Shown: positions 7,069 to 31,003 of the stretch, piece by piece
Numbering within the stretch: position 1 is the first letter of the stretch
How the letters are laid out: each line of letters starts with the position of its first letter
From: Pirellula staleyi DSM 6068
Lineage (GTDB): Bacteria > Planctomycetota > Planctomycetia > Pirellulales > Pirellulaceae
Direction: 5' to 3'
Assembly (NCBI GenBank): GCA_000025185.1
Contig: CP001848.1
Coordinates: 3,180,001-3,212,000, forward strand
DNA length: 32,000 nucleotides
Position numbers and translations under genes: made by a program
The notes under the pieces: model-generated
The model's database searches: none
Seen by the model: only the letters and a program-made list of their open reading frames with translations
What the model was told of the DNA's origin: nothing

Positions 7069-9384
7069 ATGCCATCTCTTCCGTTCCCTACGTTTCGACC
7101 TCTCTTCTTCGCAGCAATGCATCTCGTCGCCTCGCTGCTGATCGCACAGCAAATACCATCGCTCGGGGCCGAAGCACCTGCACCGGCGAAAACGCCCACC
7201 GATACGACTCCACCCGCCATCGCAGCGGCGAAAGAGCTAGCCACGATGGTGCAAAATCTGGCCCGCGATGCACGCAGCAGTGTGGTGGTTGTCACAGCCA
7301 GTGGACGTGAAGCTAGCGATACGCAGCTCGGCACCGGCTTTATCATCTCGGCCGATGGACTTGTTGCTACGAACTATCACGTCATTGGCGAAGGTCGGCC
7401 ACTGGAAGTTCGCACCGCCGACGGCAAGCAACTCGAAGTCATCGAGATTCACGCGACCGATCGTAATGCTGACTTGGCAGTTTTGCGGGTAAAAGCCGAA
7501 GGACTTCCGTTCCTGAAGCTGGGGGACTCGGCAAAGGTGGCTGAAGGGGAGCCGATTGTAGTGCTTGGGAATCCGCGCGGACTGAGGCACAGCGTGGTGA
7601 GTGGCGTGATCAGTGGCATGCGCGATATCGACGAGGCGGGGCTGAAACAAAAGATGCTGCAAATCGCCATGCCGATCGAGCCTGGCAACAGCGGCGGACC
7701 GGTTCTGAATCTGGCCGGGGAAGTGCTCGGCGTGGTGACAATGAAATCGCTTGTCACCGAGAATCTCGGCTTTGCAATCCAGGTGAGCGATCTGAAGCGA
7801 ATTCTCGAAAATCCCAACTCGCTGCCGATTGCACGCTGGATCTCCATCGGTGCGCTCGACCCCAAGCAGTGGACCACGCTGTTTGGCGCACGTTGGTCGC
7901 AGCGTGGTGGCAAACTCCTCGTCACAGGGCAGGGGAACGGTTTTGGTGGCCGCTCTCTCTGTTTATCGCAAGAGAAACCGCCTGAGCTTCCCTTCGAAGT
8001 TTCGGTAATGGTGAAAATGGACGACGAAGCCGGAGCTGCGGGGCTCGTGTTCCACAGCGATGGCGAGAATCGACACTATGGGTTCTATCCTTCGGCTGGC
8101 AATGTGCGGCTCAGCCGATTTGAAGGCCCCGACGTCTTTAGCTGGCAAGTTCTCTACGACAAACCGACAAAGGCCTATCGCGCGAAGGAGTGGAACACGC
8201 TCAAGGTGCGTGTGGAAGAAGGGGCGATCTCTTGCTTCGTCAATGACGAGCTTGTCACGAAGGTAGAAGATCGCGTCTACACCTCGGGACAGGTGGGACT
8301 TGCCAAATTTCGACAAACTTCGGCTGAATTTCGCCGTTTTCAGGTGGGTAAGAGTGTCCCACGTGCTCTGCCGAGTGAATCGGAGGCGAGTAGCATTCGC
8401 GAGCAAGTGGCGATGATTCCATCGCTACGCGAAATTGTGAGCGAGTCGCTTTCCCCCTTCACCAAGAATGCCAGCGCCAGCGTGCATGTGTTGCGAGACG
8501 AAGCGGCCCGCTTGCGGGCACGTGCCGATGAGCTCACGCGTATCGCAGCAGATGTTCGAACCGCGTCGGTCGTGGAAGAGCTTCGTAAAGTCGCAGGTCC
8601 CGAAGTGGCCGAGGTCGATCTCCTGGCAGCCTCGCTTTGGATTGCCTCGCTCGACGAAGAGGATGTCGACGTCACGGCGTACATCAAGCAAGTCGATCGT
8701 ATGGCAGCGGAGGTAAAGTCCTCTTTCACCGAGAAGCCCGCCGATGACGAAAAGATCACCAAACTCAATCGGCTGTTGTTCGATGAACTCGGATTTCATG
8801 GGAGCAGGGCTGACTATTATCAGCGCGCGAATAGCTACTTCAATCGTGTCCTCGATGATCGCGAAGGATTGCCGATCACCTTATCGGTGCTCTACCTTTC
8901 GCTGGCCAAGCGAATCGATTTGCCGATGGAAGGTGTCGGCATGCCAGGACATTTTCTCGTGCGGCATCGACCCGTCGAAGGGGAGCCGCAACTGCTCGAT
9001 CCGTTTGATCGCGGCGCAAAAATCTCGCGTGAGCAGGCTGCCAAGTTGATGCTCGAAAGCAGCGGTGCTGTGCTGGAAGATGAGCATCTAGTCGCAACGC
9101 CCCACCGGGCCATTGTGGTGCGGATGCTGCAGAACTTGCTAAATCTCGCACAAGGATCGCAAGATCGCGAGGCGATGATCCGCTATCTCGACGCTATGAT
9201 TGCCGTCGACCCAGCCTTGGTTCGCGAACGAGGCTTACGAGCGATTGTTCGTTTCGAAACTGGTCGGAAGCAAGCCGCTGCTATCGATCTCGACTGGTTC
9301 CTCGAAAAGAAACCGGAAGGGATCGACCTCGAGCAAATCGAAAGTATGCGGGCCTTTTTTCTCGAAGATAGCGGAAAGAACTAG
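7069..9384 (+). CDS. Secreted multidomain protein: S1C (HtrA/DegP-like) serine protease + DUF1080/concanavalin-like domain + SirB1-like transglutaminase-fold/TPR domain
   Basis: 771 aa with a hydrophobic N-terminus. Protease triad contexts: TNYHVI (His104, 7378-7380), DLAVLRV (Asp), GNSGGPVLN (Ser208, 7690-7692). The middle region (about 7861-8349) has the DUF1080-like pattern (AGLVFHSDG...WNTLKVRVEEGAISCFVNDELV...GQVGLAKF). The C-terminal region (about 8596-9363) parallels E. coli SirB1/YchA (LNRLLFDELGF...REGLPITLSVLYLSLAKRIDLPMEGVGMPGHFLVRH...LLDPF...RERGL). Confidence 0.85.
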   Translation: MPSLPFPTFRPLFFAAMHLVASLLIAQQIPSLGAEAPAPAKTPTDTTPPAIAAAKELATMVQNLARDARSSVVVVTASGREASDTQLGTGFIISADGLVATNYHVIGEGRPLEVRTADGKQLEVIEIHATDRNADLAVLRVKAEGLPFLKLGDSAKVAEGEPIVVLGNPRGLRHSVVSGVISGMRDIDEAGLKQKMLQIAMPIEPGNSGGPVLNLAGEVLGVVTMKSLVTENLGFAIQVSDLKRILENPNSLPIARWISIGALDPKQWTTLFGARWSQRGGKLLVTGQGNGFGGRSLCLSQEKPPELPFEVSVMVKMDDEAGAAGLVFHSDGENRHYGFYPSAGNVRLSRFEGPDVFSWQVLYDKPTKAYRAKEWNTLKVRVEEGAISCFVNDELVTKVEDRVYTSGQVGLAKFRQTSAEFRRFQVGKSVPRALPSESEASSIREQVAMIPSLREIVSESLSPFTKNASASVHVLRDEAARLRARADELTRIAADVRTASVVEELRKVAGPEVAEVDLLAASLWIASLDEEDVDVTAYIKQVDRMAAEVKSSFTEKPADDEKITKLNRLLFDELGFHGSRADYYQRANSYFNRVLDDREGLPITLSVLYLSLAKRIDLPMEGVGMPGHFLVRHRPVEGEPQLLDPFDRGAKISREQAAKLMLESSGAVLEDEHLVATPHRAIVVRMLQNLLNLAQGSQDREAMIRYLDAMIAVDPALVRERGLRAIVRFETGRKQAAAIDLDWFLEKKPEGIDLEQIESMRAFFLEDSGKN

Positions 9385-20087: not shown

Positions 20088-22028
20088 CTAAGGGCGTGGT
20101 AGCCCCGGTACAAGCGTGCTCACCGGTTCTCGCATCGTCAGGTCGTGCGAAAGCAGCCGGTTTGAGCCGACAAAATAGCTGTGGAAGTCAGCGACCACCA
20201 GATTGTAGGTTTCGGCGACTCCTTCTTCGTCCACACTACTGACGCGCACACTGCCGTTTAAGCTGTGCAGCACCATGCCACTCTGTAAGTCGCTCGCTTT
20301 TTTCCACCCTTCACCGGCGACCCAGAAGACATGGCCGCCGCTGCAGGAAATGGTTTCGCCCCCGCAATCGATTTTGATGAGCTTCCCCGCTGGCCGTGTA
20401 CTCTTGCTCGTCGCAGGTCGCAGGGCGAGTTCGCCCGTTTTTGTATCCTGGGTGTAGATCAGGTCACCGACTTGGATCTTCTCGACCGCGACAGGACCAC
20501 GTGCTGTCCAAACCGGAGTTCCAGCGACAAGGCAATCCTTCGGTCGTCTCTGCTGATCCCAGTTAAAACCGCCGGTCAGAGGCTGGGAGGAGACTTGGGT
20601 GCTGCGCGGTGAATCGAAGCCCGGCTGAATTTGCCGGTCGATAATTTCGACTTGCCGGAACTCTTGCGAAATGGTGGTGGCTTTCGTTCCGACCGTTTGA
20701 AACTCGTTGTACTTCGTCCACCAATCCCACCAGGCTGAAGGTTCGGCTGCGATTTTGTCTTCGCTTGTTGCGATCGAGAGGACCCAGCAAATGCGATCGT
20801 TGATCTGCTGCGTGATGCGGTTTTCTGCTTCCGCTGCACTCAGGTTCTCGCCAATCTCAGCGGCGATTTCGGCTTGTGCTCGTTCTGTCGCGTTTTGCTG
20901 GATAGCGTTTCGCTCGGCACTTGAGTAGCGACGTCCACGATTGCCACTGTTTTGCTCGCGTACGAACTCGGCCTGGGCCACGGCAATTTCCCGGCGATCT
21001 TGGGTTTCTCGGACAAAGACTTGCTGGGTCCCGATCCGTCCCCCTTCGAGTTGCACCACAGCCCACTCGGCTCGAATGGGAGTGACCATCGAAGCGAGCA
21101 GCAGCGGAACGTAGGAATGCAGGTCGCGATCTTGCAGCAGCTTGGCCGCTTCTTCGCGAATGAACAGGCTGTCGTGCATCACAGCGTGCCGAGCCAGAGA
21201 TCGCGAGGCCTCTGTTTCAGGAATGGTTGCGAGCCACTCGATGGCGAGCATGCAAGGGACCTGGCCACTCGTGGAAACGATCGCTTCCACGGCAAACACA
21301 GCTTCGACATCACGCAGGGCCAGCAGTTCCTTCTTGGCCGCTTCACGCTGAATCTGGCTCCCCTTCACCAACTTTTCGACGATCTTTTGGAGCTGAACGC
21401 GGTACTTTTTGACGGAAGCAGCGCGGCGTGATTGTTCGATAGCACCGGCGGCTAGTTCAGCCTCGGTGGTCCAGCGCCCCTCGATGTTTTGAAAGCCGAG
21501 CATCCGCCGGGCAACAGCGTGGTCGGGATCGAGTTCGATCACCCGCTCGAGGTGCCCTCGGGCTTGCAAATGGAGTTTTTCAGCGAGGCACCACTCGGCC
21601 AGCTGAAGCTGTTCATTAGGGGTGTCGAGAAATTCACTCCGTTTGCGTTCGTACTTGGCGAGGCGTTTTTGCCAGAGTGGATCGACGAGCATGTCGTCGA
21701 CCGACTGCCACTCGCTCCGTTCGTTTCGCATCATCCCTTGCATCCAGCGGGGGGCCGGCAACTCGGGAGCGAGTCGGGCAGCCTCTTGCAGCAGTTCGCT
21801 CCGTTCGTCCGACAGGCCGTAGATTTCGCGCTGGAGCGCTTCGGCAACGTTTTCTTTCGCTTGGGTGAGCGCCGCAGCGCCACGCAGTTTTTCGACACGC
21901 GTCGCTTGCTGAGACCTTCCGACGGGAGAAGCTGCCGACGCCAATCGAGCTGCGATGAAATCGCCGAGCAAGATTGCCATCCCCAGCAGCAGAACAACGC
22001 GCAGAACCAACCCCCAAGAACGCAGCAT
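20088..22028 (-). CDS. Secreted/anchored TPR-HEAT-like protein with C-terminal Hint (bacterial intein-like) autoprocessing domain
   Basis: 646 aa from ATG 22028 (MLRSWGLVLRVVLLLGMAILLG...ASA, with AGAGGGG upstream). The ORF is open to 22094. The N-terminal about 500 aa are helical-repeat-like. The last 148 aa carry Hint blocks (see the separate domain feature). Confidence 0.85.
   Translation of the reverse strand: MLRSWGLVLRVVLLLGMAILLGDFIAARLASAASPVGRSQQATRVEKLRGAAALTQAKENVAEALQREIYGLSDERSELLQEAARLAPELPAPRWMQGMMRNERSEWQSVDDMLVDPLWQKRLAKYERKRSEFLDTPNEQLQLAEWCLAEKLHLQARGHLERVIELDPDHAVARRMLGFQNIEGRWTTEAELAAGAIEQSRRAASVKKYRVQLQKIVEKLVKGSQIQREAAKKELLALRDVEAVFAVEAIVSTSGQVPCMLAIEWLATIPETEASRSLARHAVMHDSLFIREEAAKLLQDRDLHSYVPLLLASMVTPIRAEWAVVQLEGGRIGTQQVFVRETQDRREIAVAQAEFVREQNSGNRGRRYSSAERNAIQQNATERAQAEIAAEIGENLSAAEAENRITQQINDRICWVLSIATSEDKIAAEPSAWWDWWTKYNEFQTVGTKATTISQEFRQVEIIDRQIQPGFDSPRSTQVSSQPLTGGFNWDQQRRPKDCLVAGTPVWTARGPVAVEKIQVGDLIYTQDTKTGELALRPATSKSTRPAGKLIKIDCGGETISCSGGHVFWVAGEGWKKASDLQSGMVLHSLNGSVRVSSVDEEGVAETYNLVVADFHSYFVGSNRLLSHDLTMREPVSTLVPGLPRP
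20142..20534 (-). other. Hint / bacterial intein-like (BIL) domain within the 20088-22028 CDS
   Basis: Starts at Cys (codon 20532-20534) in CLVAGTPVWT. SGGHVFWV is the block B (T/S)xxH. YNLVVADFHSYFVGSNRLLSHD are the terminal blocks, ending His-Asp (Asp codon 20142-20144) instead of His-Asn. The next residue is Leu, and only 17 residues follow. Confidence 0.8.
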
Positions 22029-22379
22029 GGCAAGCCCCTCTAGATACGAGGAAAGGAAGAGTAGAGTTGCTAGTGCTTGCCCCACACTCTGCAACGACCG
22101 GAATGCTACTTCTTTCTGGGAGTGCCGATCAAGATAAAAACGAAGAAACTTTTCCGAATGGATGAGTGAAAGGTGCAGCAGTGAATTGCTTCCTGGGAAC
22201 TGTGTTTTTCCTGGGTTTTAGTTAGGTGGCCTACTGGTCTCTGGGGTGGAGGGCCACCGGTACCGCAGCCTGTTCGTTGTTGCACGTGCTCTACTGGGGA
22301 ACTTACAATCCTGTGATATCTGTTGGTCTCCTCACCGCCAACTTCCCGCCTGTCACTCTGATTTGAGGAGTTGCTTTTG

Positions 22380-23048
22380 ATGTTTCGCTGCCATGCGATT
22401 GTCCGCTCGGTTGTTTTTGCTTTCGGTCTGGCGCTCGCTACTTTCGGCGTTGCTGCCGAGGGTGAGAAAGACGAAGGTTTCGTTCCTCTGTTCGACGGCA
22501 AAACCCTTGCTGGCTGGACCGGCTCGGTCGACGGCTATGTCGTGGAAGATGGTGCTATCGTTTGCTTGCCCGACAAAGGTGGCAATCTCTACACCGACAA
22601 AGAATATGCCAACTTTGTGTTCCGCTTTGAGTTCAAGCTCACCGCCGGCGCGAACAACGGCATTGGCATTCGCACCGCTCCCAAGGGTGATCCGGCTTAT
22701 GTCGGGATGGAAATCCAAGTCCTCGACGACAGCTCGGATAAGTACAAGGGAATTGCTCCCTATCAGCATCACGGTTCGGTCTACGGTGTCGTTCCCGCCA
22801 AGACAGGTTTCCTGAAGCCTGTGGGTGAATGGAACACGGAAGAGATCACCTGCGATGGCCGGAACATCAAGATTGTGCTCAACGGCGAAACGATTGTCGA
22901 AGCCAATCTGGATGAGGCGAGCACCCCAAAGACGATCGATGGGAACGCTCACCCCGGTCTGAAGAACGAAAAAGGCTACATCTGCTTCTGCGGCCACGGC
23001 GCGAAGGTTGCGTTTCGTAACCTGAGCATCAAGGTGCTCGAGAAGTAA
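22380..23048 (+). CDS. Secreted DUF1080 (3-keto-disaccharide hydrolase / concanavalin-like) domain protein
   Basis: Signal peptide, then EGFVPLFDGKTLAGWTG...VVEDGAIVC...GNLYTDKEYANFVFRFEFKL..GANNGIGIR...EIQVLDD...WNTEEITCDGRNIKIVLNGETIV...FRNLSIKVL, the classic DUF1080 pattern. ATG 22380 lies 9 nt after GAGGAG. The ORF is open from TTG 22371. Confidence 0.88.
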   Translation: MFRCHAIVRSVVFAFGLALATFGVAAEGEKDEGFVPLFDGKTLAGWTGSVDGYVVEDGAIVCLPDKGGNLYTDKEYANFVFRFEFKLTAGANNGIGIRTAPKGDPAYVGMEIQVLDDSSDKYKGIAPYQHHGSVYGVVPAKTGFLKPVGEWNTEEITCDGRNIKIVLNGETIVEANLDEASTPKTIDGNAHPGLKNEKGYICFCGHGAKVAFRNLSIKVLEK

Positions 23049-23107: not shown

Positions 23108-23153
23108 GAAGGGATGGAGATGGCACAGAGCCGTTTCCCTCCCTTCTTTTTTT
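23108..23153 (+). terminator. Rho-independent terminator after the DUF1080 gene
   Basis: Stem GAAGGGATGGAG / TTCCCTCCCTTC (7 bp, one mismatch, 3-4 further pairs), followed by T7 at 23147-23153. Confidence 0.8.
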
Positions 23154-23427: not shown

Positions 23428-25344
23428 ATGTTGCTAAAAAAACTCTTTATCGCGCGGACCCTCGTGGTTCATGCGCTCCTCGCGCTTGTTACAGCCACCG
23501 CCTGGGCCGACCCAGCCGATGACGCGTTCGCTAGTGCTTATAAACAATACACCGCAGGTGAGTGGGCTACTGCTGCGCAGTCACTCGTGCAGTTCTCGGG
23601 CGATTTTCAGTCGCACCCTCGTGCCAATGAAGCCCTGTTCTACGCTGCCGAAGCGCTCGTCCAGGACAATAAGCTGGCCGAAGCGACAGTAATGCTCGAG
23701 GATCTCGTTAGCAAAGAGATCGATCCCGAACTTCGTCGGCAGTCCGATTTCCGACTCGCCGAAATCTCCTACCTCGATGGCAACGACGCCGACGCTCGCA
23801 AGCGTTTGATCGCGTTCCGTCAGGCGTATCCCAACGACTCGCTCAACGCCATGGTGCTGATGTACCTCGGCGAGATTGATCTCGCTTCCGAACAAATCGA
23901 CTCGGCGATTTCGCTCTTCTCGGAGTCGCTCGAAAACTATCCGAAGTCGACTTGCCGCCAGCAAGTACAGCTCGGTTTGGCCTGCGCTTGGCTCCGTCAA
24001 AAGCAAGTGAAGCCAGCGGTCGATGTGCTCGAGCAACTCGTCAAGAGCAGCGATGCCACGGTGGTGCGCAGCGCCAAAGACCTGCTCGAAATTGCCGCTG
24101 AAAATGAAAACGTAGCCGGTGGCACGGCGCTTCCACCAGCAGAGGCAGCGCTAGCTCGTGCTCGCCAGTTGCAGCAAGCACGGCAACTCGATGCGGCGAT
24201 CGCTCAGTTCACCGCCATCTATCGTCAGTATCCCAATAGCCCTCAGGCACCTTTGGCCAAACTCGGTGCAGCTCGCGTCCATCTCGAACAGAAGCAGTAC
24301 CGCGAAGCAGAATCGCTCCTCGCTTCGATCGACGAAAACGGCGCGAACGTCACGAACCTCGATGCCGTGCTGTACGAACGCGGCTGGGCTTTGGCGATGA
24401 TGGAAGTCCTCACGAAATCGGACGAGCTTTTTCAGCGTCTGCACAAAGAGTTTCCACACAGCATCTACTGGGCCGACGCCACCTATCGTTTGGCCGAACG
24501 CTCGGCGCGTCGTGGCGATTCGAAAGCCGCAATGACGCTGGTCGGAGAAGTGCTCGATTCGAAATGCGACGACTCGCTTCGTGTGCATGCTCTGTATCTC
24601 AAGGGGCAACTCGCTGCCACCGATCAGGAGTGGGCTGTAGTTTCGAAAACCATGGACGAACTCCTTGCGAGCGACGCCAATTCGCAGCTGGCTCCAGCAG
24701 CTCGCTACTGGAAAGCGGAAGCGACGTTCCGCCAAAAAGATTTTGAGTCCGCTGCCGAGCAGTTCGAGATCCTGGCAGCCCAGACCAGCGGTCGCGCCGA
24801 AACCTGGCTCGCGATGGTCGAACTCCGTCGTGCTCAAATCCTGGCCCACAAAGAAGAGTGGCAACAGTCGCTCGACATGCTCACGAATCTTCGCAAGCGA
24901 TTTCCAGCTTTCGCGCAGAAGCATGAAGCCGACTACCTGGAAGGTCGTTGCCTCGCCGCACTAGCGCTGCTTGATGATGCCCGCGCTGCTTACATGCGAG
25001 TTCTCGCCAGCGCCAGTGGCCAAGATACCGAAACGGCTGCCATGGCCGCTTGGATGATTGGCGAAAGTTATTTCCATCAGAAACGCTATCCCGAAGCGAT
25101 TGAAGCTTACGAACAGTGTGCACGTGGACACAAATTTCCCACGTGGCAATCGGCTTCGCTGCTGCAAGCGGGCAAGTGCCTGCAGCTGCAGAACAAAAAG
25201 TCCGAGGCTGCAGAATACTATCGCCGCGTGGTAAACGAATTTGCCGAAACCACGTACGCTGCCGAAGCTCGCGAACGTCTCGCCACCACCGATATGCCAG
25301 CGGCCGAAACAGCCGAAGGAAAAGCGGTCAGCAGCCGCGAATAG
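23428..25344 (+). CDS. Secreted TPR-repeat protein (YbgF/CpoB-like repeats), first gene of the ExbB-ExbD cluster
   Basis: Signal peptide MLLKKLFIARTLVVHALLALVTATAWA. Many TPR-like helical pairs (ANEALFYAAEALVQDNKLAEA, YPNSPQAPLAKLGAARVHLEQKQYREA, ...AEYYRRVVNEFAETTYAAEARERL). An alternative ATG lies at 23404. Confidence 0.8.
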   Translation: MLLKKLFIARTLVVHALLALVTATAWADPADDAFASAYKQYTAGEWATAAQSLVQFSGDFQSHPRANEALFYAAEALVQDNKLAEATVMLEDLVSKEIDPELRRQSDFRLAEISYLDGNDADARKRLIAFRQAYPNDSLNAMVLMYLGEIDLASEQIDSAISLFSESLENYPKSTCRQQVQLGLACAWLRQKQVKPAVDVLEQLVKSSDATVVRSAKDLLEIAAENENVAGGTALPPAEAALARARQLQQARQLDAAIAQFTAIYRQYPNSPQAPLAKLGAARVHLEQKQYREAESLLASIDENGANVTNLDAVLYERGWALAMMEVLTKSDELFQRLHKEFPHSIYWADATYRLAERSARRGDSKAAMTLVGEVLDSKCDDSLRVHALYLKGQLAATDQEWAVVSKTMDELLASDANSQLAPAARYWKAEATFRQKDFESAAEQFEILAAQTSGRAETWLAMVELRRAQILAHKEEWQQSLDMLTNLRKRFPAFAQKHEADYLEGRCLAALALLDDARAAYMRVLASASGQDTETAAMAAWMIGESYFHQKRYPEAIEAYEQCARGHKFPTWQSASLLQAGKCLQLQNKKSEAAEYYRRVVNEFAETTYAAEARERLATTDMPAAETAEGKAVSSRE

Positions 25345-25416
25345 CATCCGCAAGATGCTCCGCGATTGCGACGTCACTTGTCCAGGTCGTCCGAAAGTTA
25401 CAGCGAGATTCGAGTC

Positions 25417-26241
25417 ATGCGCCTTCGAACCAAGATTCTGCGATTCGTTGCCGCGACCAGCAGTCACTTGCGCTCGGTTGCGACGTTGACGCTGCTCGGA
25501 CTCGCAGCCTCGGCCAGCGCTCAAGAATCGATGGCAGATGTCGCCGCCGGTGAAGCGACCATTCCCACGAAAAATCTGCTCGACGTCTTCTACGACGGCG
25601 GGCCGTTGATGTATCCGATCGGGCTCAGTTCGTTCGTACTCATGATTTTTGTCTTCGAACGTTTCATCAGCCTCCGCCGTGGTCGCGTGATCCCTAAGCC
25701 GTTTGTGAAACGCTTCATCGAGCAGCTTCGCGAGGGACAACTCGATCGCGAGAAAGCGGTCGCTTTGTGCGAGCAGAATAAGAGCCCCGTTGCTGTGGTG
25801 TTCGCCGCTGCTGCGAAAAAATGGGGACGGACAGCAGTCGAAGTCGAGCAGGCGATTCTCGACTCGGGCGAACGAGTAACAAATCAACTCCGCCGGCACT
25901 TGCGGCTCCTCAACGGCATTTCGCAAGTCAGTCCTTTGCTCGGACTCCTGGGGACTGTGCTCGGTATGATCTCGAGCTTCAACGCCATCGCCACCGCTGA
26001 AGCATCTGGTCAGCGCGAAGCACTTGCCGGTGGCATTGCGGAAGCTTTGATCACCACTGCCGCAGGCATGCTGGTGGCGATTCCTGCGCTCATCGCCTAT
26101 CTCTACTTCGTCGGACGGGTCGATCAGCACATCACCGAAATCGACATGCTAGGGCAACAAGTGGTGGAGCTCATCTCGTCCGATGCGCTCGAGCAATCGA
26201 GCCGCGCTGCTCGGAAAGAACGAGCCAAAGCGGCCGCCTAG
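25417..26241 (+). CDS. exbB: MotA/TolQ/ExbB-family proton channel
   Basis: LLGLLGTVLGMISSF and GGIAEALITTAAGMLVAIPALIAYLYF match the ExbB/TolQ TM2-TM3 signatures. The N-terminal signal-like segment starts at ATG 25417. The ORF is open from 25366. Confidence 0.9.
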   Translation: MRLRTKILRFVAATSSHLRSVATLTLLGLAASASAQESMADVAAGEATIPTKNLLDVFYDGGPLMYPIGLSSFVLMIFVFERFISLRRGRVIPKPFVKRFIEQLREGQLDREKAVALCEQNKSPVAVVFAAAAKKWGRTAVEVEQAILDSGERVTNQLRRHLRLLNGISQVSPLLGLLGTVLGMISSFNAIATAEASGQREALAGGIAEALITTAAGMLVAIPALIAYLYFVGRVDQHITEIDMLGQQVVELISSDALEQSSRAARKERAKAAA

Positions 26242-26290
26242 CTCGCTACGAGGAAACCATCGCTAACTCCCCGAAAAACAGATCACTTCC

Positions 26291-26710
26291 ATGCCGCTGA
26301 AAACCCATCAAGACGAGATGCCATCGATCAATCTGACGCCGATGATCGATATCGTTTTTCAGCTCATCATTTTCTTTATGGTTGGTACTCGCTTCACGGA
26401 GATCGAGAAAAGTATCGATCTGAAATTGCCTCAGGTATCGAGTTCCGCCCCACTTTCGTCCGCTCCTCAGAAGCGGGTGATCAACGTGTTTCGCGATGGC
26501 AAAATTCAGATGAATCAACAGGAGTTGTCGCTCGGTCAGTTGACGAGCGAACTCAAAACAGCCCGCGAGCAGTACAACGAACTGGGGGTGGTGGTGCGCG
26601 GCGATGCACAGACTGACCTGCAAAATGTTGCCGCCATTCTGACCGCATGCCGCGAGGCGGGAATTTCTGATTTGGGAATCTCGGTCCGACTAGGAACCAA
26701 GGAACGATAA
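26291..26710 (+). CDS. exbD: ExbD/TolR-family biopolymer transport protein
   Basis: 139 aa. INLTPMIDIVFQLIIFFMV carries the conserved TM Asp (26348-26350). A periplasmic domain of typical length follows. Confidence 0.9.
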   Translation: MPLKTHQDEMPSINLTPMIDIVFQLIIFFMVGTRFTEIEKSIDLKLPQVSSSAPLSSAPQKRVINVFRDGKIQMNQQELSLGQLTSELKTAREQYNELGVVVRGDAQTDLQNVAAILTACREAGISDLGISVRLGTKER

Positions 26711-26713
26711 CCT

Positions 26714-28582
26714 GTGGCCGCGAGCAATTCCCTACTCCTGCTTGCTGCTGGTTCCAGCGATCGCGCCCTCGCTACGATTCTGTTCATTGGTCTAGCGATC
26801 CTCACCACGGGCCTTGTGACGTTGATGTGGACCCGCTGGGGGCATGCCCGTCCGCTCGCTAAATGCGCGGGGCTTTCGCTCTTCGCTCACTTGCTCCTTT
26901 TGATGTACGCCTATGGCACGCGCGTGCTGTTCGACTCACCAGGACGGATCACCTCGAGTGGCACGATGCAGGTGCGGCTCGCCGATGAAAATTCCGATCA
27001 AGATGCCTCCCCCGCCAGCGAAGACTCGCAGCAGCCCTGGGAATGGTCGGTTTCCGAAAAACCTGTTGGTCCCGATCTGCTGTCGCCCGATAAAGTGAAT
27101 TTGCCCGAGGAAGAGGTTGCTCAGAATCCTGCGGAAAATCCGCAGCCGAGCGACAGTCCTGCTCCGATGCCACCGCAACTGGTGCAGCGTGAACCTTCGC
27201 CTCCGGCGCTCCTGCCAGAGCCCCCAGCAGCGACTCCACCGGTTGATAAGACACCCACCGAAAACGCCGGGGATCTGGCCGAGATGGGGCCGATGCCGTC
27301 GGAAGCTGTCGCTCCAGAAGTGGCTGCTGTAGAGCCGCCAGCAGAGCCCGCGCCTCTCGTGCCCCGGCCGAACCCAGTTACCTCCTCGGCGCAGAATGTG
27401 TTCGAAACTTCCCGTGTCGGCCAGCTTCCGACCACCATTCGCCGCAGTGGCGACGGCAAGCCTGTTCCCGCACTGCTCCAAGCACGCATGCAGGCCGATC
27501 GACTCCTCATCGCGAGCCGCTTTGGTGGTACTCCGCAAACGGAAGCCTCCGTCGCTGCTGCCATCGACTGGCTAGTTGCAAATCAATCGGCCGATGGTCG
27601 CTGGGACTGCGATGCCCATGGTGGTGGCCGCGAAACTCGCACTTTAGGACACGATCGTGGCGGTGCAGGAGCACAAGCCGACACAGCAATCACAGGTCTT
27701 GCGCTACTGGCCCTCATGGGGCGTGGTGAAACACATCTGGCTGGCGATCATCGCGAGTCGGTGCAGCATGGCCTCGAGTTTCTCTTAGCCAGTCAAACTG
27801 ACGATGGATGCCTCGCAGGAAACGCCGAACTCTTTGCGGCGATGTATGCGCATGCCATCGCCACACTGGCCGTGTGCGAAGCGTTTGCGCTCACCGGCGA
27901 CGAGCGGCTGCAGCCTGGCGCGGCGAAAGCGATCGAGTACACACTTCGCGCTCAGCACGTCGCTGGTGGCTGGCGTTATCGCCCCGGAGATGCGGGCGAT
28001 ATGAGCCAGTTCGGCTGGCATGTGATGTCGCTCAAGAGCGCCGAACTCGCGGGGTTGCCGATTCCAGCCGAAACAAATCTGCGCATGCGCCGATTCTTGG
28101 CGAGTTGCACGTCGGGGCGTGCGCGGGGACTAGCGGCCTATCGTGCGGGCGATCGTCCCTCGCGCACCATGACCGCCGAAGCAATGGTTTGTCGCGGATT
28201 TCTCGGGGAAAACGTAGCCCAAGCGACCGCCAGCGAAGGGCTGCAATTCATTCTCGAAGAACGGCCGAGTGCACGCAGCGGAAACTTTTACTACTGGTAC
28301 TACGCGACCCTGGCGACGTTTCAGCAGCAAGGGCGCGAATGGGAAACGTGGAATCGTGAGCTACAGCGCGAGTTGCTTTCGACGCAGCGACTCGATGGAG
28401 CGATGGCTGGCAGCTGGGACCCCGATCAAATCTGGGGTGGCTACGGCGGACGTGTTTACAGCACGGCGCTTGGCGCACTCATGCTGGAAGTCTACTACCG
28501 CTATCTGCCGACACTGGGTGACGATGCCGCTGCTGCCGATCGTATTACTGAACGTCCCGACGTCAGCCCTTATGGGCGATAA
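26714..28582 (+). CDS. Membrane-anchored protein: two N-terminal TM segments (second with SxxxH), acidic Pro-rich spacer, C-terminal QW-motif (alpha/alpha)-toroid (prenyltransferase/squalene-cyclase-repeat-like) domain
   Basis: 622 aa. The GTG start lies 3 nt after the exbD stop. TM segments at about aa 17-39 and 50-67 (AGLSLFAHLLLLMYAYG). Residues 95-225 are rich in Pro/Glu/Ala (PSDSPAPMPPQLVQREPSPPALLPEPPAATPP...). The C-terminal region has QxxxGxW-type repeats: NQSADGRW, AQHVAGGW, SQTDDGCL, TQRLDGAMAGSW. Confidence 0.8.
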   Translation: MAASNSLLLLAAGSSDRALATILFIGLAILTTGLVTLMWTRWGHARPLAKCAGLSLFAHLLLLMYAYGTRVLFDSPGRITSSGTMQVRLADENSDQDASPASEDSQQPWEWSVSEKPVGPDLLSPDKVNLPEEEVAQNPAENPQPSDSPAPMPPQLVQREPSPPALLPEPPAATPPVDKTPTENAGDLAEMGPMPSEAVAPEVAAVEPPAEPAPLVPRPNPVTSSAQNVFETSRVGQLPTTIRRSGDGKPVPALLQARMQADRLLIASRFGGTPQTEASVAAAIDWLVANQSADGRWDCDAHGGGRETRTLGHDRGGAGAQADTAITGLALLALMGRGETHLAGDHRESVQHGLEFLLASQTDDGCLAGNAELFAAMYAHAIATLAVCEAFALTGDERLQPGAAKAIEYTLRAQHVAGGWRYRPGDAGDMSQFGWHVMSLKSAELAGLPIPAETNLRMRRFLASCTSGRARGLAAYRAGDRPSRTMTAEAMVCRGFLGENVAQATASEGLQFILEERPSARSGNFYYWYYATLATFQQQGREWETWNRELQRELLSTQRLDGAMAGSWDPDQIWGGYGGRVYSTALGALMLEVYYRYLPTLGDDAAAADRITERPDVSPYGR

Positions 28583-28621
28583 ATCGCGCGTGGTTGTTCT
28601 TCGCCATGTTGTTTTCACCTG

Positions 28622-29308
28622 CTAAGTGCCGCGCGTTGCGCCGTACCACTCGATATGTTTTCGCGGACAAAGCTGAAACCCGCGAGCGGCACAAAAGGGG
28701 GCGAGCCAAGCACTACGCGCCGCTAACTCCTCGAGCTTCGTTCCTTGCGGCATCAGCAGCACTCGTTCGGGACGAACCTCGGGAAACTCTTCGAGCCAAC
28801 TGTCGAGCTCCGCGAAATCGCTCTCGCTATCGATCACAAATTTCAGCTGATAGTCGTACTCGGCGATCATTTTGCGAATCACGTGGGGCTGATGCCGCAC
28901 GCGCTCATGACGAGCTGCCCAGCGACCAGCACGCGCCACGCTCGGCGTGCTGCTGGCGAGCTTGGGACTAATCGACATCAAATCGCAGGCAACTTCCAAA
29001 TGAAGCGTGCCTGCTGTCTCGATGGTGATGTGCAGCCCGAGTCGCTTCAGTTCCTGCGTCAGCGGCACCATTTCGCTATAGAGCATCGGTTCGCCGCCGG
29101 TGATCACCACGTGCGACGTTTGCTTCGCCTGCACCTGGTGAACGATTTCTTCGAGGCTCCAGTCTTCCCCTTCAGGTTGCCAGCTCGTGAAGGGGGTGTC
29201 GCAAAACCAGCAGCGAAGATTACAGCCGCTGGCGCGCACAAACACGCTCGGGGTGCCTGTCAGGCGCCCTTCCCCTTGCAGCGACGTGTAAAGTTCAGCG
29301 ATCAGCAT
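28622..29308 (-). CDS. queE: 7-carboxy-7-deazaguanine synthase (radical SAM), QueE
   Basis: ELYTSLQGEGRLTGTPSVFVRASGCNLRCWFCDT (Cx3Cx2C radical-SAM cluster in QueE context) and ITGGEP. The start is set at ATG 29308 (MLIAELY...). The ORF is open to 29359. Confidence 0.88.
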   Translation of the reverse strand: MLIAELYTSLQGEGRLTGTPSVFVRASGCNLRCWFCDTPFTSWQPEGEDWSLEEIVHQVQAKQTSHVVITGGEPMLYSEMVPLTQELKRLGLHITIETAGTLHLEVACDLMSISPKLASSTPSVARAGRWAARHERVRHQPHVIRKMIAEYDYQLKFVIDSESDFAELDSWLEEFPEVRPERVLLMPQGTKLEELAARSAWLAPFCAARGFQLCPRKHIEWYGATRGT

Positions 29309-29352
29309 AGCGGTAGTTGTAACCTCGCCCCCTTTGCGCGAGCCTAGCCATA

Positions 29353-29751
29353 ATGACACAATACGTAATTCACGAAAAGGAGAAGCCCGGCGTGTCTGAT
29401 ACCCCCCGAAATCTGCTCGAAACGTTCGAAAACAAGTTCCCCTCGCGCGACTATACGATCGAGATCGTCGCCCCCGAATTCACTTCGGTATGCCCCCTCA
29501 CAGGGCAGCCCGACTTTGGCACCATCACGCTCCGCTATACCCCCGATGCGAAATGCGTGGAGCTGAAGAGCTTTAAGTTCTACCTGCAAAGCTTCCGTAA
29601 TCGCGGAATCTTCTACGAGAACGTCACGAACTCGATCTTCGACGACTTGGTCGCAGTGCTTGAGCCCCGGCATCTTGTCCTCACCGCTCGCTTCACTCCT
29701 CGTGGCGGCATCTCTTCGGTCATCGAAGTGGTGCACCAAAAAACAAAGTAA
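29353..29751 (+). CDS. queF: NADPH-dependent 7-cyano-7-deazaguanine (preQ0) reductase, unimodular type
   Basis: 132 aa. [18 protein letters not shown] (nucleophile Cys) and [15 protein letters not shown] (QueF motif). Confidence 0.92.
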
Positions 29752-29827
29752 TTCGCAGTAGCAACCGCTCCCTCCTGAGTGTTGTCGTCGGTTCTTGTTG
29801 ATTTTTTGCAGCTGAAAGTTAGCGAGC

Positions 29828-31003
29828 ATGAAGATTGCATACATCGATTGCTTGAGCGGCATCAGCGGCGATATGTTCCTCGGAGCCCTCGTCGACTCTG
29901 GGGTTCCGCTCGAGCAATTGCAGGCTGCTATCGACTCGCTCGCGATTCCCGTTTGTCGGCTCGAAGCCACCAGTGTGCATCGCAAAGGGTTTCGCTCGCT
30001 GAAGGTGAAAGTGCATACCGAGCCTGAGAAGGCGCACCGCCACCTGCACCATATCGTCGACAAGATCGAAGCCTCGCAGGTTCTCACCGCGCCCCAAAAA
30101 GACCTCGCCAAACGGATTTTCACCAAGCTCGGAATCGCTGAAGCGACCGTGCATGGAACCGATCTGCGAAAGGTCCATTTCCACGAAGTGGGGGCGGCTG
30201 ATTCGATTGCCGATATCGTCGGCGCTGCGGTCGGAATTACGCTGCTGGGTGTCGATCGGATCGTCTGTTCTCCGGTGCCAACGGGAAGCGGTTTTATCGA
30301 AATCGATCACGGCCGCGTCAGCATCCCGGCTCCAGCAACCGCCGAACTCCTCAAGGGAATTCCACTCGCTCCTTCGGTTGCGACCATCGAACTCACAACC
30401 CCCACCGGTGCCGCCATTGTCGCCACTGTCGCTGACACGTTTGGTCCACTCCCGGCGATGACGATGCAAACCATCGGTATCGGGGCTGGGGATCACGACC
30501 TGAAAGTACAGCCGAACATCATGCGGCTGATCATCGGCGAGTCGACCGCTGAACTTGCTCGCGACGATGTGTGGGTCCTCGAGACCAATCTCGACGACGT
30601 CACCGGAGAAGTGATTGGCCATGCCACTTCGAAATTGCTCGACGCCGGCGCACTCGATGTCTACACCACTGCGATTCAGATGAAAAAGAATCGCCCCGGT
30701 GTTCTCATCACGGTCTTGGCTCCAGCAGAACTGGCGGCGAAGTGCGAAAAGATTTTGTTCCGCGAAACCGGCACGCTTGGAATCCGGCGCTACCTGGCGA
30801 GTCGTCACAAACTCGAGCGCCGGGCATGTTCGGTGGAGACATCGATCGGCCTCGTCGCTGGCAAACTGGCGACCCTTTCCGACGGCACGGAAAGTTTCTC
30901 TCCCGAGTACGAAGCTTGCCGCGTGATTGCTGCCGAAAAGAATCTGCCTCTACGCGAGGTCTATGAAATTGCTCTTCGCGCGTTTGAGCAGAAAACAACT
31001 TAA
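29828..31003 (+). CDS. larC: LarC-family nickel insertion protein (nickel-pincer cofactor biosynthesis; DUF111)
   Basis: 391 aa. MKIAYIDCLSGISGDMFLGALVDSGV and HFHEVGAADSIADIVGAAVG are the LarC/DUF111 N-terminal signatures. The C-terminal domain is of typical length. Confidence 0.85.
   Translation: MKIAYIDCLSGISGDMFLGALVDSGVPLEQLQAAIDSLAIPVCRLEATSVHRKGFRSLKVKVHTEPEKAHRHLHHIVDKIEASQVLTAPQKDLAKRIFTKLGIAEATVHGTDLRKVHFHEVGAADSIADIVGAAVGITLLGVDRIVCSPVPTGSGFIEIDHGRVSIPAPATAELLKGIPLAPSVATIELTTPTGAAIVATVADTFGPLPAMTMQTIGIGAGDHDLKVQPNIMRLIIGESTAELARDDVWVLETNLDDVTGEVIGHATSKLLDAGALDVYTTAIQMKKNRPGVLITVLAPAELAAKCEKILFRETGTLGIRRYLASRHKLERRACSVETSIGLVAGKLATLSDGTESFSPEYEACRVIAAEKNLPLREVYEIALRAFEQKTT

Follow-up and report, generated by a model that had tools for sequence, protein, structure and literature searches.

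A toroid-headed protein encoded behind exbB and exbD in Pirellula staleyi as a candidate envelope force transducer

The window analysed here, a stretch of 32,000 nucleotides from the genome of Pirellula staleyi DSM 6068 (contig CP001848.1, positions 3,180,001 to 3,212,000), contains four co-directional genes at 23428-28582 that encode a tetratricopeptide repeat (TPR) protein, ExbB, ExbD and a 622-aa protein, referred to below as genes 1 to 4. The product of gene 4 is read here as an envelope force transducer that is coupled to the proton-motive force and carries a new head domain, a reading to which we assign a probability of roughly 0.65, and this toroid-headed protein is probably an undescribed class of envelope force transducer. 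An earlier note on this DNA, made from the letters alone, had placed gene 4 in the slot normally filled by TonB or TolA and had described it as an anchor followed by a spacer. That placement stands, in that the protein has an S-x3-H motif in its second transmembrane (TM) helix and a proline-rich linker behind it, and its gene lies next to exbD.

Anchor, linker and head of the gene 4 protein

The membrane anchor was examined in alignments of 19 close family members and of 44 representatives at ~40-49% identity to the window protein. The best-conserved segment of the N-terminal half reads T40-R-W-G43-x3-P47-x2-K50-C51-x2-L54-S55-x2-A58-H59-x-L-L, and among the 44 representatives T40, G43, K50, C51, L54 and H59 are invariant, while S55 is kept in 95% and A58 in 98%; TM helix 1 is moderately conserved, with G26 and L34 kept in at least 90% of sequences. 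The segment contains the TonB-type Ser-x3-His, the first half of the SHLS motif (S55, codon 26876-26878; H59, codon 26888-26890). In cryo-electron microscopy structures, TonB and TolA contact TM1 of ExbB and TolQ through a hub that consists of a Ser four residues ahead of a His in the anchoring TM helix (PMC12905483), and the SHLS-type feature serves to recognise new force transducers (PMC12204202). Judged by its sequence, the gene 4 anchor is TonB/TolA-like. Because the loop at residues 39-50 (TRWGxxRPxxK) is basic, the positive-inside rule predicts that TM helix 2 runs in-to-out, which would leave the rest of the protein in the periplasm, and TM helix 1 would then run out-to-in.

About 15 residues beyond TM helix 2, residues 84-90 show an alternating hydrophobic pattern that is kept across the 44 representatives while the residues themselves vary (VIQVRV, FRVRLV, VIRVSL). 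This short strand resembles, in position and pattern, the D-box of E. coli TonB, QPISVTMVTPAD, which is captured by the ExbD dimer (PMC10907165), and it may bind ExbD in a similar manner. The linker that follows is unalignable between homologues, ranges in length from 112 to 254 aa across the family, and contains 22% Pro in gene 4 against a family median of 15%. Residues 73-239 have a predicted local distance difference test score (pLDDT) below 50 in the AlphaFold2 model. Gene 4 accordingly has the proline-rich, periplasm-spanning type of linker by which members of the TonB family are recognised.

The C-terminal part of the protein had been described in the earlier note as toroid-like, with a structure prediction proposed as a check. 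The AlphaFold2 model, built from the 19-sequence alignment, consists of two N-terminal helices, a disordered stretch, a confident all-helical domain and a disordered tail, and its sole globular domain, at residues 245-597, is an (alpha/alpha)6 toroid, in agreement with that description. Repeats of the form L..Q...[DG]G begin at residues 287, 357, 411 and 554. A Foldseek search against the PDB returned only (alpha/alpha)6 toroids of the six-hairpin or terpenoid-cyclase type, namely GH76 alpha-1,6-mannanase, the AprG transaldolase, single-domain class II terpene cyclases, cellobiose 2-epimerases and prenyltransferase beta subunits, with TM-scores of ~0.55-0.64, 10-16% identity and E values no better than 6e-5. 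Because these matches are to toroids only, and weak ones, the toroid assignment is right and the domain has no close structural relative.

The same part of the protein had been said to carry neither a TonB C-terminal domain nor a TolA domain III, and a hidden match to either in profile searches had been named as a result that would overturn the proposal; none was found. TonB_C, TolA and TonB_N gave no match in the whole protein at E<=0.1 in Pfam and NCBIfam, or in residues 1-249 at E<=10, and since even these permissive scans were empty, a hidden domain of this kind is rejected. No vWA Pfam match was found in gene 4, the head of which is an all-helical toroid. TonB_C (PF03544), for comparison, binds the Ton box by beta-augmentation.

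The fold raises the question of whether gene 4 encodes a genuine terpenoid cyclase or prenyltransferase. Such a reading could draw on the match to PF13243 (SQHop_cyclase_C; 32.5 bits, above the gathering cut-off of 26.1), on a weak PDB sequence match to squalene-hopene cyclase and on the Foldseek matches to single-domain class II cyclases. However, the Pfam match is partial and covers one repeat region (profile positions 201-284 of 319), the PDB sequence matches are marginal (squalene-hopene cyclase, E = 0.0016; TEP1), the score against TIGR01507 is 38.7 compared with a cut-off of 431, and gene 4 has one toroid, as opposed to the two-domain squalene-hopene cyclase, on a long proline-rich tether that would hold it in the periplasm. 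None of the DxDD, DDxxD and C-x-EQ thioester motifs is present in the window protein, and DxDD is absent from all 44 family members, two of which have DDxxD. Terpene cyclase or prenyltransferase activity is effectively refuted by the missing catalytic motif, and we regard it as highly improbable. A thioester function of the alpha-2-macroglobulin TED-like kind is likewise rejected, as C-x-EQ is missing and the TEP1 match is marginal. Since the catalytic motifs are missing and E489 is the sole invariant acidic residue across the 44 representatives, the toroid is read, from its motif content, as a binding module and not as a terpene cyclase.

A broader version of this idea is that gene 4 encodes a membrane-anchored periplasmic enzyme, either a six-hairpin glycan hydrolase, lyase or epimerase or an enzyme that processes lipids or isoprenoids, which is co-transcribed with ExbBD as part of the same pathway and is not driven by the motor, the His of TM helix 2 being structural or otherwise used. 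The top Foldseek matches (GH76, AprG, cellobiose 2-epimerases and class II cyclases) are indeed enzymes, the toroid is rich in invariant Arg, Tyr, Trp, His, Gln and Glu, and many homologues give faint Pec_lyase matches. On the other side, the fold matches are as distant as stated above, a single invariant acidic residue and no DxDD are found, and a periplasmic enzyme would have no need for a proline-rich spacer of 112-254 aa, an invariant TM His or an exbD gene adjacent in 100% of cases. We therefore consider this enzyme unlikely and continue to read gene 4 as a force transducer.

The disordered C-terminal tail ends in a conserved Arg: the final residue is Arg in 148 of the 178 family members that reach the C-terminus, and a closer subfamily keeps the motif R-phi-T-[E/D]-R-P ... 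P-R-COOH. Such a tail could act as a short linear motif that is bound, for example, by the TPR protein or by an outer-membrane partner.

Stator genes, the TPR gene and conservation of the cluster

The two genes directly upstream of gene 4 encode the components expected of a proton-driven stator, as had been proposed from their sequences. Gene 2 matches PF01618 at 2e-29 (102.4 bits; cut-off 22.9), and its translation contains GLLGTVLGM, IAEALITTAAGMLVAIPA and ITTAAGMLVAIPA with the conserved Thr and Pro of TM2 and TM3, in keeping with an intact ExbB/TolQ channel; its N-terminus has a signal-peptide-like extension. Gene 3 matches PF02472 at 8.1e-29 (100.7 bits; cut-off 25.4) and has the essential TM Asp, Asp20 in TPMIDIVF, at codon 26348-26350. 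In NCBIfam, the best model for gene 2 is TolQ (TIGR02796; 96.6 bits, cut-off 221), followed by ExbB (TIGR02797; 60.9 bits, cut-off 206), and gene 3 scores 64 bits with TolR (cut-off 127) and 45 bits with ExbD, all of these below the equivalog cut-offs. Because the TolQ and TolR scores fall so far short, the stator proteins are to be regarded as members of their families and not as assignable orthologues. A Zorya or other MotAB-like defence system is rejected, since PADLOC gave nothing significant: ExbB had marginal ZorA matches (E = 3e-4, 17.7 bits) and genes 3 and 4 had no Zorya-like match.

Gene 1, earlier described as a signal-peptide TPR protein with YbgF/CpoB-like repeats, fits that description. 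It matches TPR_6 at 1.4e-25 together with TPR_21, TPR_16 and YfiO, so that its repeats are both YbgF/CpoB-like and BamD-like, and its N-terminus is signal-peptide-like (...TAWA/DP) and has no lipobox Cys. The score against the YbgF model TIGR02795, 158.9 bits, is above the cut-off and is a sum over six TPR stretches of the 638-aa protein, while the score against the CpoB equivalog NF008068 in NCBIfam is 36.5 compared with a cut-off of 383. CpoB/YbgF itself has ~260 aa, with an N-terminal coiled coil and a TPR domain, and is encoded after pal. A gene-1-like TPR gene precedes exbB in ~45 of the ~68 related loci with enough upstream DNA, and it is clearly absent from the A. aggregata locus.

These features bear on a sub-case of the force-transducer reading, in which the cluster is the Tol-Pal system of Pirellulales, with gene 4 in place of TolA, stabilising the outer membrane or drawing it inward during budding, and gene 1 as the equivalent of CpoB. 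The stator proteins score higher with TolQ and TolR than with the ExbB and ExbD models, gene 1 exceeds the YbgF cut-off, and the gene 4 linker is Pro-rich, as are most non-proteobacterial TolA proteins (PMC12204202). Against this, the TolQ and TolR scores miss the equivalog cut-offs by a wide margin, the YbgF score accumulates over repeats and CpoB equivalence is far from reached, and about one third of the loci have no TPR gene. The related loci show neither tolB nor pal, whether in their conserved neighbour clusters or in their called genes, and the larger open reading frames (ORFs) of the window that were scanned contain no domain of TolB, Pal, TonB_C or a TonB-dependent receptor, which bears out the statement in the earlier note that tolB, pal and TonB-dependent receptor genes are missing here. 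A Tol-Pal system of this form is, in our estimation, quite unlikely.

The conservation of the exbD-toroid adjacency had been set as a test of the proposal, and the adjacency is complete among the informative related loci. Relatives are encoded in 161 stretches according to a scan that took one genome per species, and the gene order was read from 80 retrieved loci. By tblastn, the immediate upstream neighbour of the gene-4 homologue is a co-directional exbD in 76 of 76 informative loci, a count from which four loci with less than ~220 nt of upstream sequence are excluded, and exbB lies upstream in 71 of 71, the other nine being cut by contig ends. In many loci the exbD-toroid junction is a gap of 3-4 nt or an overlap. 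Two divergent members that were retrieved independently also belong to TPR-ExbB-ExbD-toroid operons, one of them with Ala replacing S55. Because the arrangement recurs in every informative related locus, it is not a chance juxtaposition.

The anchor and the toroid also occur together. A profile of the anchor (residues 1-91) gave 627 matches at E<=1e-3 among 1.84 billion representatives clustered at 50% identity, and among the best 150 of the 627, all 43 aligned near-full-length matches have the toroid architecture over their whole length, while matches under ~450 aa look like contig-truncated fragments. Since all 43 share the full architecture, anchor and toroid form an obligate pair, and other heads on the same anchor, such as vWA, are rejected for these 43 among the best 150 of 627. 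Anchor, linker and toroid are one coherent family that is obligately linked to ExbBD.

More than 1200 gene-4 homologues were found, with names pointing to Pirellulaceae, and the named sources of the loci all belong to Pirellulaceae/Pirellulales (including Anatilimnocola, Blastopirellula and Mariniblastus) or to unclassified Planctomycetota. The earlier suggestion of a system of PVC-type bacteria (the Planctomycetes-Verrucomicrobia-Chlamydiae group) thus holds for Pirellulales within the Planctomycetota, and not for a PVC-wide range, the documented sources being Pirellulales. In public sources the family appears under names such as 'outer membrane biosynthesis protein TonB', 'squalene--hopene cyclase', 'Pectic acid lyase' and 'prenyltransferase/squalene oxidase repeat-containing protein' (hits with such names include P0009, P0015, P0028, P0041 and P0097). 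These database names are misleading, as none is supported by the domain tests.

Two further observations concern the related loci. A small gene of the TatA/B/E family (MFG.GxxELLVxGVIAxLLFGxxLP...) follows the toroid gene in the same orientation, at a distance of ~150-500 nt, in 48 of the 80 loci, for example at L084:10099-10266, L083:10068-10262, L039:2898-3251, L022:10582-10902 and L059:10545-10868; it is not in the window, where queE converges on the cluster, and it may reflect plain synteny or an extension of the operon. In two loci (L007:207-572 and L057:160-528), a second exbD-like gene, divergent and 33% identical to gene 3, is found ~7.5 kb 5' of the toroid operon, so more than one ExbD is encoded in these genomes. 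This second gene is followed in L007, ~0.5 kb downstream, by one for a PSCyt-type (planctomycete cytochrome-like) protein.

Boundaries and surroundings of the cluster

The coordinates of the cluster and of the parts of gene 4 are collected in Table 1. The intergenic gaps, reported previously as 72, 49 and 3 nt, are reproduced with starts at 23428 and 25417. These two starts are supported by a syntenic contig (L082), the gene-4 protein of which is 78%-identical, since its gene calls of 638, 274, 139 and 634 aa agree with them; the same 3-nt junction is present there.

Table 1. Features of the cluster and of the gene 4 protein in the window (residue numbers refer to gene 4)
Feature	Position	Strand	Description
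Intrinsic terminator	23108-23153	+	Terminator of the DUF1080/3-keto-disaccharide hydrolase gene; sets the 5' boundary of the cluster
Gene 1	23428-25344 (alternative ATG 23404)	+	Secreted all-TPR protein, 638 aa, accessory component
Gene 2	25417-26241 (longest ORF from 25366)	+	ExbB/TolQ-family proton-channel subunit, 274 aa
Gene 3	26291-26710	+	ExbD/TolR-family subunit, 139 aa
Gene 4	26714-28582	+	GTG start; candidate force transducer, 622 aa
TM helix 1, residues 17-38	26762-26827	+	Helix 16-39 in the AlphaFold2 model; moderately conserved
TM helix 2, residues 51-68	26864-26917	+	Helix 47-68 in the model; S-x3-H motif
D-box/motor-box-like strand, residues 84-90	26963-26983	+	TMQVRLA; ~15 residues after TM helix 2
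Disordered linker, residues 92-240	26987-27433	+	Acidic, then proline-rich; equivalent to domain II
(alpha/alpha)6 toroid head, residues 245-597	27446-28504	+	pLDDT ~90; four prenyltransferase/squalene-cyclase-type repeats
Disordered C-terminal tail, residues 598-622	28505-28582	+	...DRITERPDVSPYGR plus stop codon; pLDDT below 50

The strong upstream terminator and the convergent downstream gene described previously are both confirmed. The terminator consists of a hairpin at 23108-23146 with a 16-bp interrupted stem, followed by U7, and RNA folding gave -28.4 kcal/mol (z = -4.71; none of 200 shuffled sequences was equally stable). A consensus terminator scan missed it, as its loop and bulge exceed the rules of that scan, and direct folding confirmed it. 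Downstream, queE (radical SAM; 28622-29359, minus strand) converges on the cluster, and no intrinsic terminator was recognised 3' of gene 4, where shuffled sequence does as well as the candidate hairpin at 28588-28609.

Several neighbouring genes were noted. The gene just 5' of the cluster, at 22371-23048 (+), encodes a secreted DUF1080/3-keto-disaccharide hydrolase; an ORF cluster homologous to it occurs at 13 of the 80 related loci, and in at least three loci that have no TPR gene (L001, L053 and L020, checked by eye), a DUF1080-type gene lies directly upstream of exbB. An unusual multidomain protein, encoded at 7069-9384 (+), has a trypsin-like peptidase and a DUF1080/3-keto-disaccharide hydrolase domain together with a transglutaminase-like core and TPR_9. 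At 20088-22094 (-), a 668-aa protein with an N-terminal signal or anchor and a C-terminal pretoxin-HINT domain (PF07591, 7e-17) stops directly behind this HINT domain and lacks an obvious toxin module, and its gene is syntenic in L082. On the other side, 28622-31003 holds a divergent queE/queF pair and, after it, the gene for a LarC-type nickel-insertion protein (PF01969, 9e-140). The listed queE ORF overlaps the start of queF and its L082 relative is 17 aa shorter, and the true queE start is therefore probably at ~29308.

Known relatives, proposed mechanism and significance

The closest published analogue of the toroid operon is the vWA 'force transducer' system, in which TPR-tolQ-tolR-tolR-vWA operons of PVC and other bacteria, Planctomycetes among them, encode an uncharacterised protein in which an SHLS-type TM helix and a motor box are followed by a Pro-rich domain II and a vWA head (Williams-Jones et al. 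2025, Mol Biol Evol, PMC12204202, section 8). By the published description, the two systems share the SHLS-type TM His, a domain II that is Pro-rich or disordered and is preceded by a predicted motor box, a globular head at the C-terminus that is unrelated to TonB and TolA, a position directly 3' of tolQ/exbB-like and tolR/exbD-like genes, and an uncharacterised TPR gene at the head of the operon. There are also differences, in that the head of gene 4 is an (alpha/alpha)6 toroid and not a Rossmann-type vWA domain, the toroid operon has a single exbD/tolR gene in place of a heterologous pair, the gene 4 anchor has an extra N-terminal TM helix, and the toroid version is documented in Pirellulales only. 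The idea in the earlier note of a distinct system as a new category does not hold in that form, because a non-TonB head on an SHLS-type anchor was already published in 2025 for vWA (PMC12204202). Full-text literature searches on ExbBD, force transducers, toroid folds and Planctomycetes found no description of the toroid-headed family. The toroid is most likely a third head type on the chassis used by TonB, TolA and vWA transducers; by its domains gene 4 belongs to none of these three families, yet it would work in the manner of all of them.

In comparison with TonB, gene 4 shares the linkage to exbB-exbD, an S-x3-H TM helix with a basic cytoplasmic stretch before it, a D-box-like strand a short way beyond the membrane and a proline-rich periplasmic spacer; unlike TonB, it has no TonB_C (PF03544) by sequence or by fold, it has two TM helices, it does not keep the Leu and Ser of SHLS, and no TonB-dependent transporter gene lies nearby, few or none of these being reported in Pirellulales (PMC3422733). 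The likeness to the TolA system lies in the motor-motor-transducer gene order, in stators that score best with TolQ and TolR, and in a clustered TPR protein with YbgF-type repeats, whereas domain III (PF06519), tolB and pal are missing, the equivalog cut-offs are not reached, and the TPR gene lies upstream and not downstream, is ~2.4x the length of CpoB and is absent in a third of loci. With class II terpene cyclases, prenyltransferase beta-subunits and six-hairpin glycosidases, gene 4 has in common the (alpha/alpha)6 toroid and repeats of the 'L..Q...DG.W' type, which are characteristic of the prenyltransferase/squalene oxidase repeat superfamily, but its head differs from theirs in lacking DxDD, DDxxD and the thioester motif, in its low similarity (10-16% identity, TM-score ~0.6) and in being tethered by a TonB-like anchor in what is predicted to be the periplasm.

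A mechanism can be proposed from these parts. ExbB and ExbD would form a 5:2 proton-driven stator in the inner membrane, as their family membership and the conserved TM Asp20 suggest, and TM helix 2 of gene 4 would dock on the periphery of the ExbB pentamer through S55 and H59, as TonB and TolA do, to judge from the motif, the position and the obligate linkage. The strand ~15 residues beyond the membrane may be captured by the periplasmic ExbD dimer in the manner of a D-box, a step suggested by its sequence pattern only, and the proline-rich linker of ~150 residues would span the periplasm, in line with the sequence and the structure model. At the level of the peptidoglycan or the outer membrane, the toroid would grip a ligand, for which a glycan, an isoprenoid or lipid-type molecule, or a protein partner are the likely candidates, and proton flow through the motor would pull on or move this ligand. 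The TPR protein of gene 1 would serve as an accessory scaffold that is frequent but dispensable, comparable to CpoB in Tol-Pal and to the TPR gene in the vWA operons.

Several points weigh against this reading. The contact between ExbB and gene 4 is argued from motif, position and gene linkage, no outer-membrane partner gene is linked to the cluster, and the invariant Arg, Tyr, Trp, His, Gln and Glu residues of the toroid would also fit an enzyme. The complete SHLS spacing is Ser-3x-His-6x-Leu-3x-Ser, and it is not kept in gene 4, where His+7 is Ala66 (93%) and His+11 is Arg70. The Trp of ExbB TM1 that contacts the motif in E. coli is presumably missing as well, according to a manual alignment with E. 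coli sequences. Gene 4 has two TM helices and not one, with an N-out/C-out topology predicted from the positive-inside rule, and its D-box is a pattern and not a conserved sequence, the strand being left unfolded in the AlphaFold2 monomer model. Finally, canonical TonB homologues are reported in some Pirellulales, namely Pirellula staleyi and Blastopirellula marina (PMC3422733), and these could be the true partners of some ExbBD pairs; because of them, the toroid protein is not necessarily the sole partner of ExbBD. The survey in question found TonB homologues in only four planctomycete genomes and one predicted TonB-dependent receptor each in P. staleyi and B. marina, which shows that canonical Ton is sparse, and not absent, in planctomycetes (Speth et al. 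2012, PMC3422733).

There is an even chance that the toroid-headed family constitutes a third structural class of periplasmic transducers driven by the proton-motive force, after those with the TonB/TolA C-terminal domain and those with the vWA head, which would let Pirellulales, where TonB-dependent transporters are few or missing, apply the energy of the inner membrane to an outer-envelope process by means of a toroid that grips glycan or lipid. Candidate processes are the energy-dependent uptake of macromolecules or polysaccharides, the homeostasis of outer-membrane lipids or hopanoids, and the remodelling of the envelope in budding without FtsZ.

To our knowledge, Ton and Tol were long the only tethered-transducer routes by which energy of the inner membrane was known to reach the outer envelope of diderm bacteria, and the vWA-headed class was proposed only in 2025. 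The general concept therefore has a precedent, and the function of the toroid system is inferred; the system itself is conserved, order-wide and experimentally tractable, and its analysis corrects the misleading family names "squalene-hopene cyclase", "pectic acid lyase" and "TonB". If the reading is true, a further non-canonical head with strict linkage to ExbBD throughout an entire order of Planctomycetes would make the anchor-plus-spacer a general chassis for different "grippers". One operon and one invariant His offer a concrete, testable handle on the biology of the planctomycete envelope, and bear on how these cells energise uptake or the maintenance of the outer membrane with very few TonB-dependent transporters.

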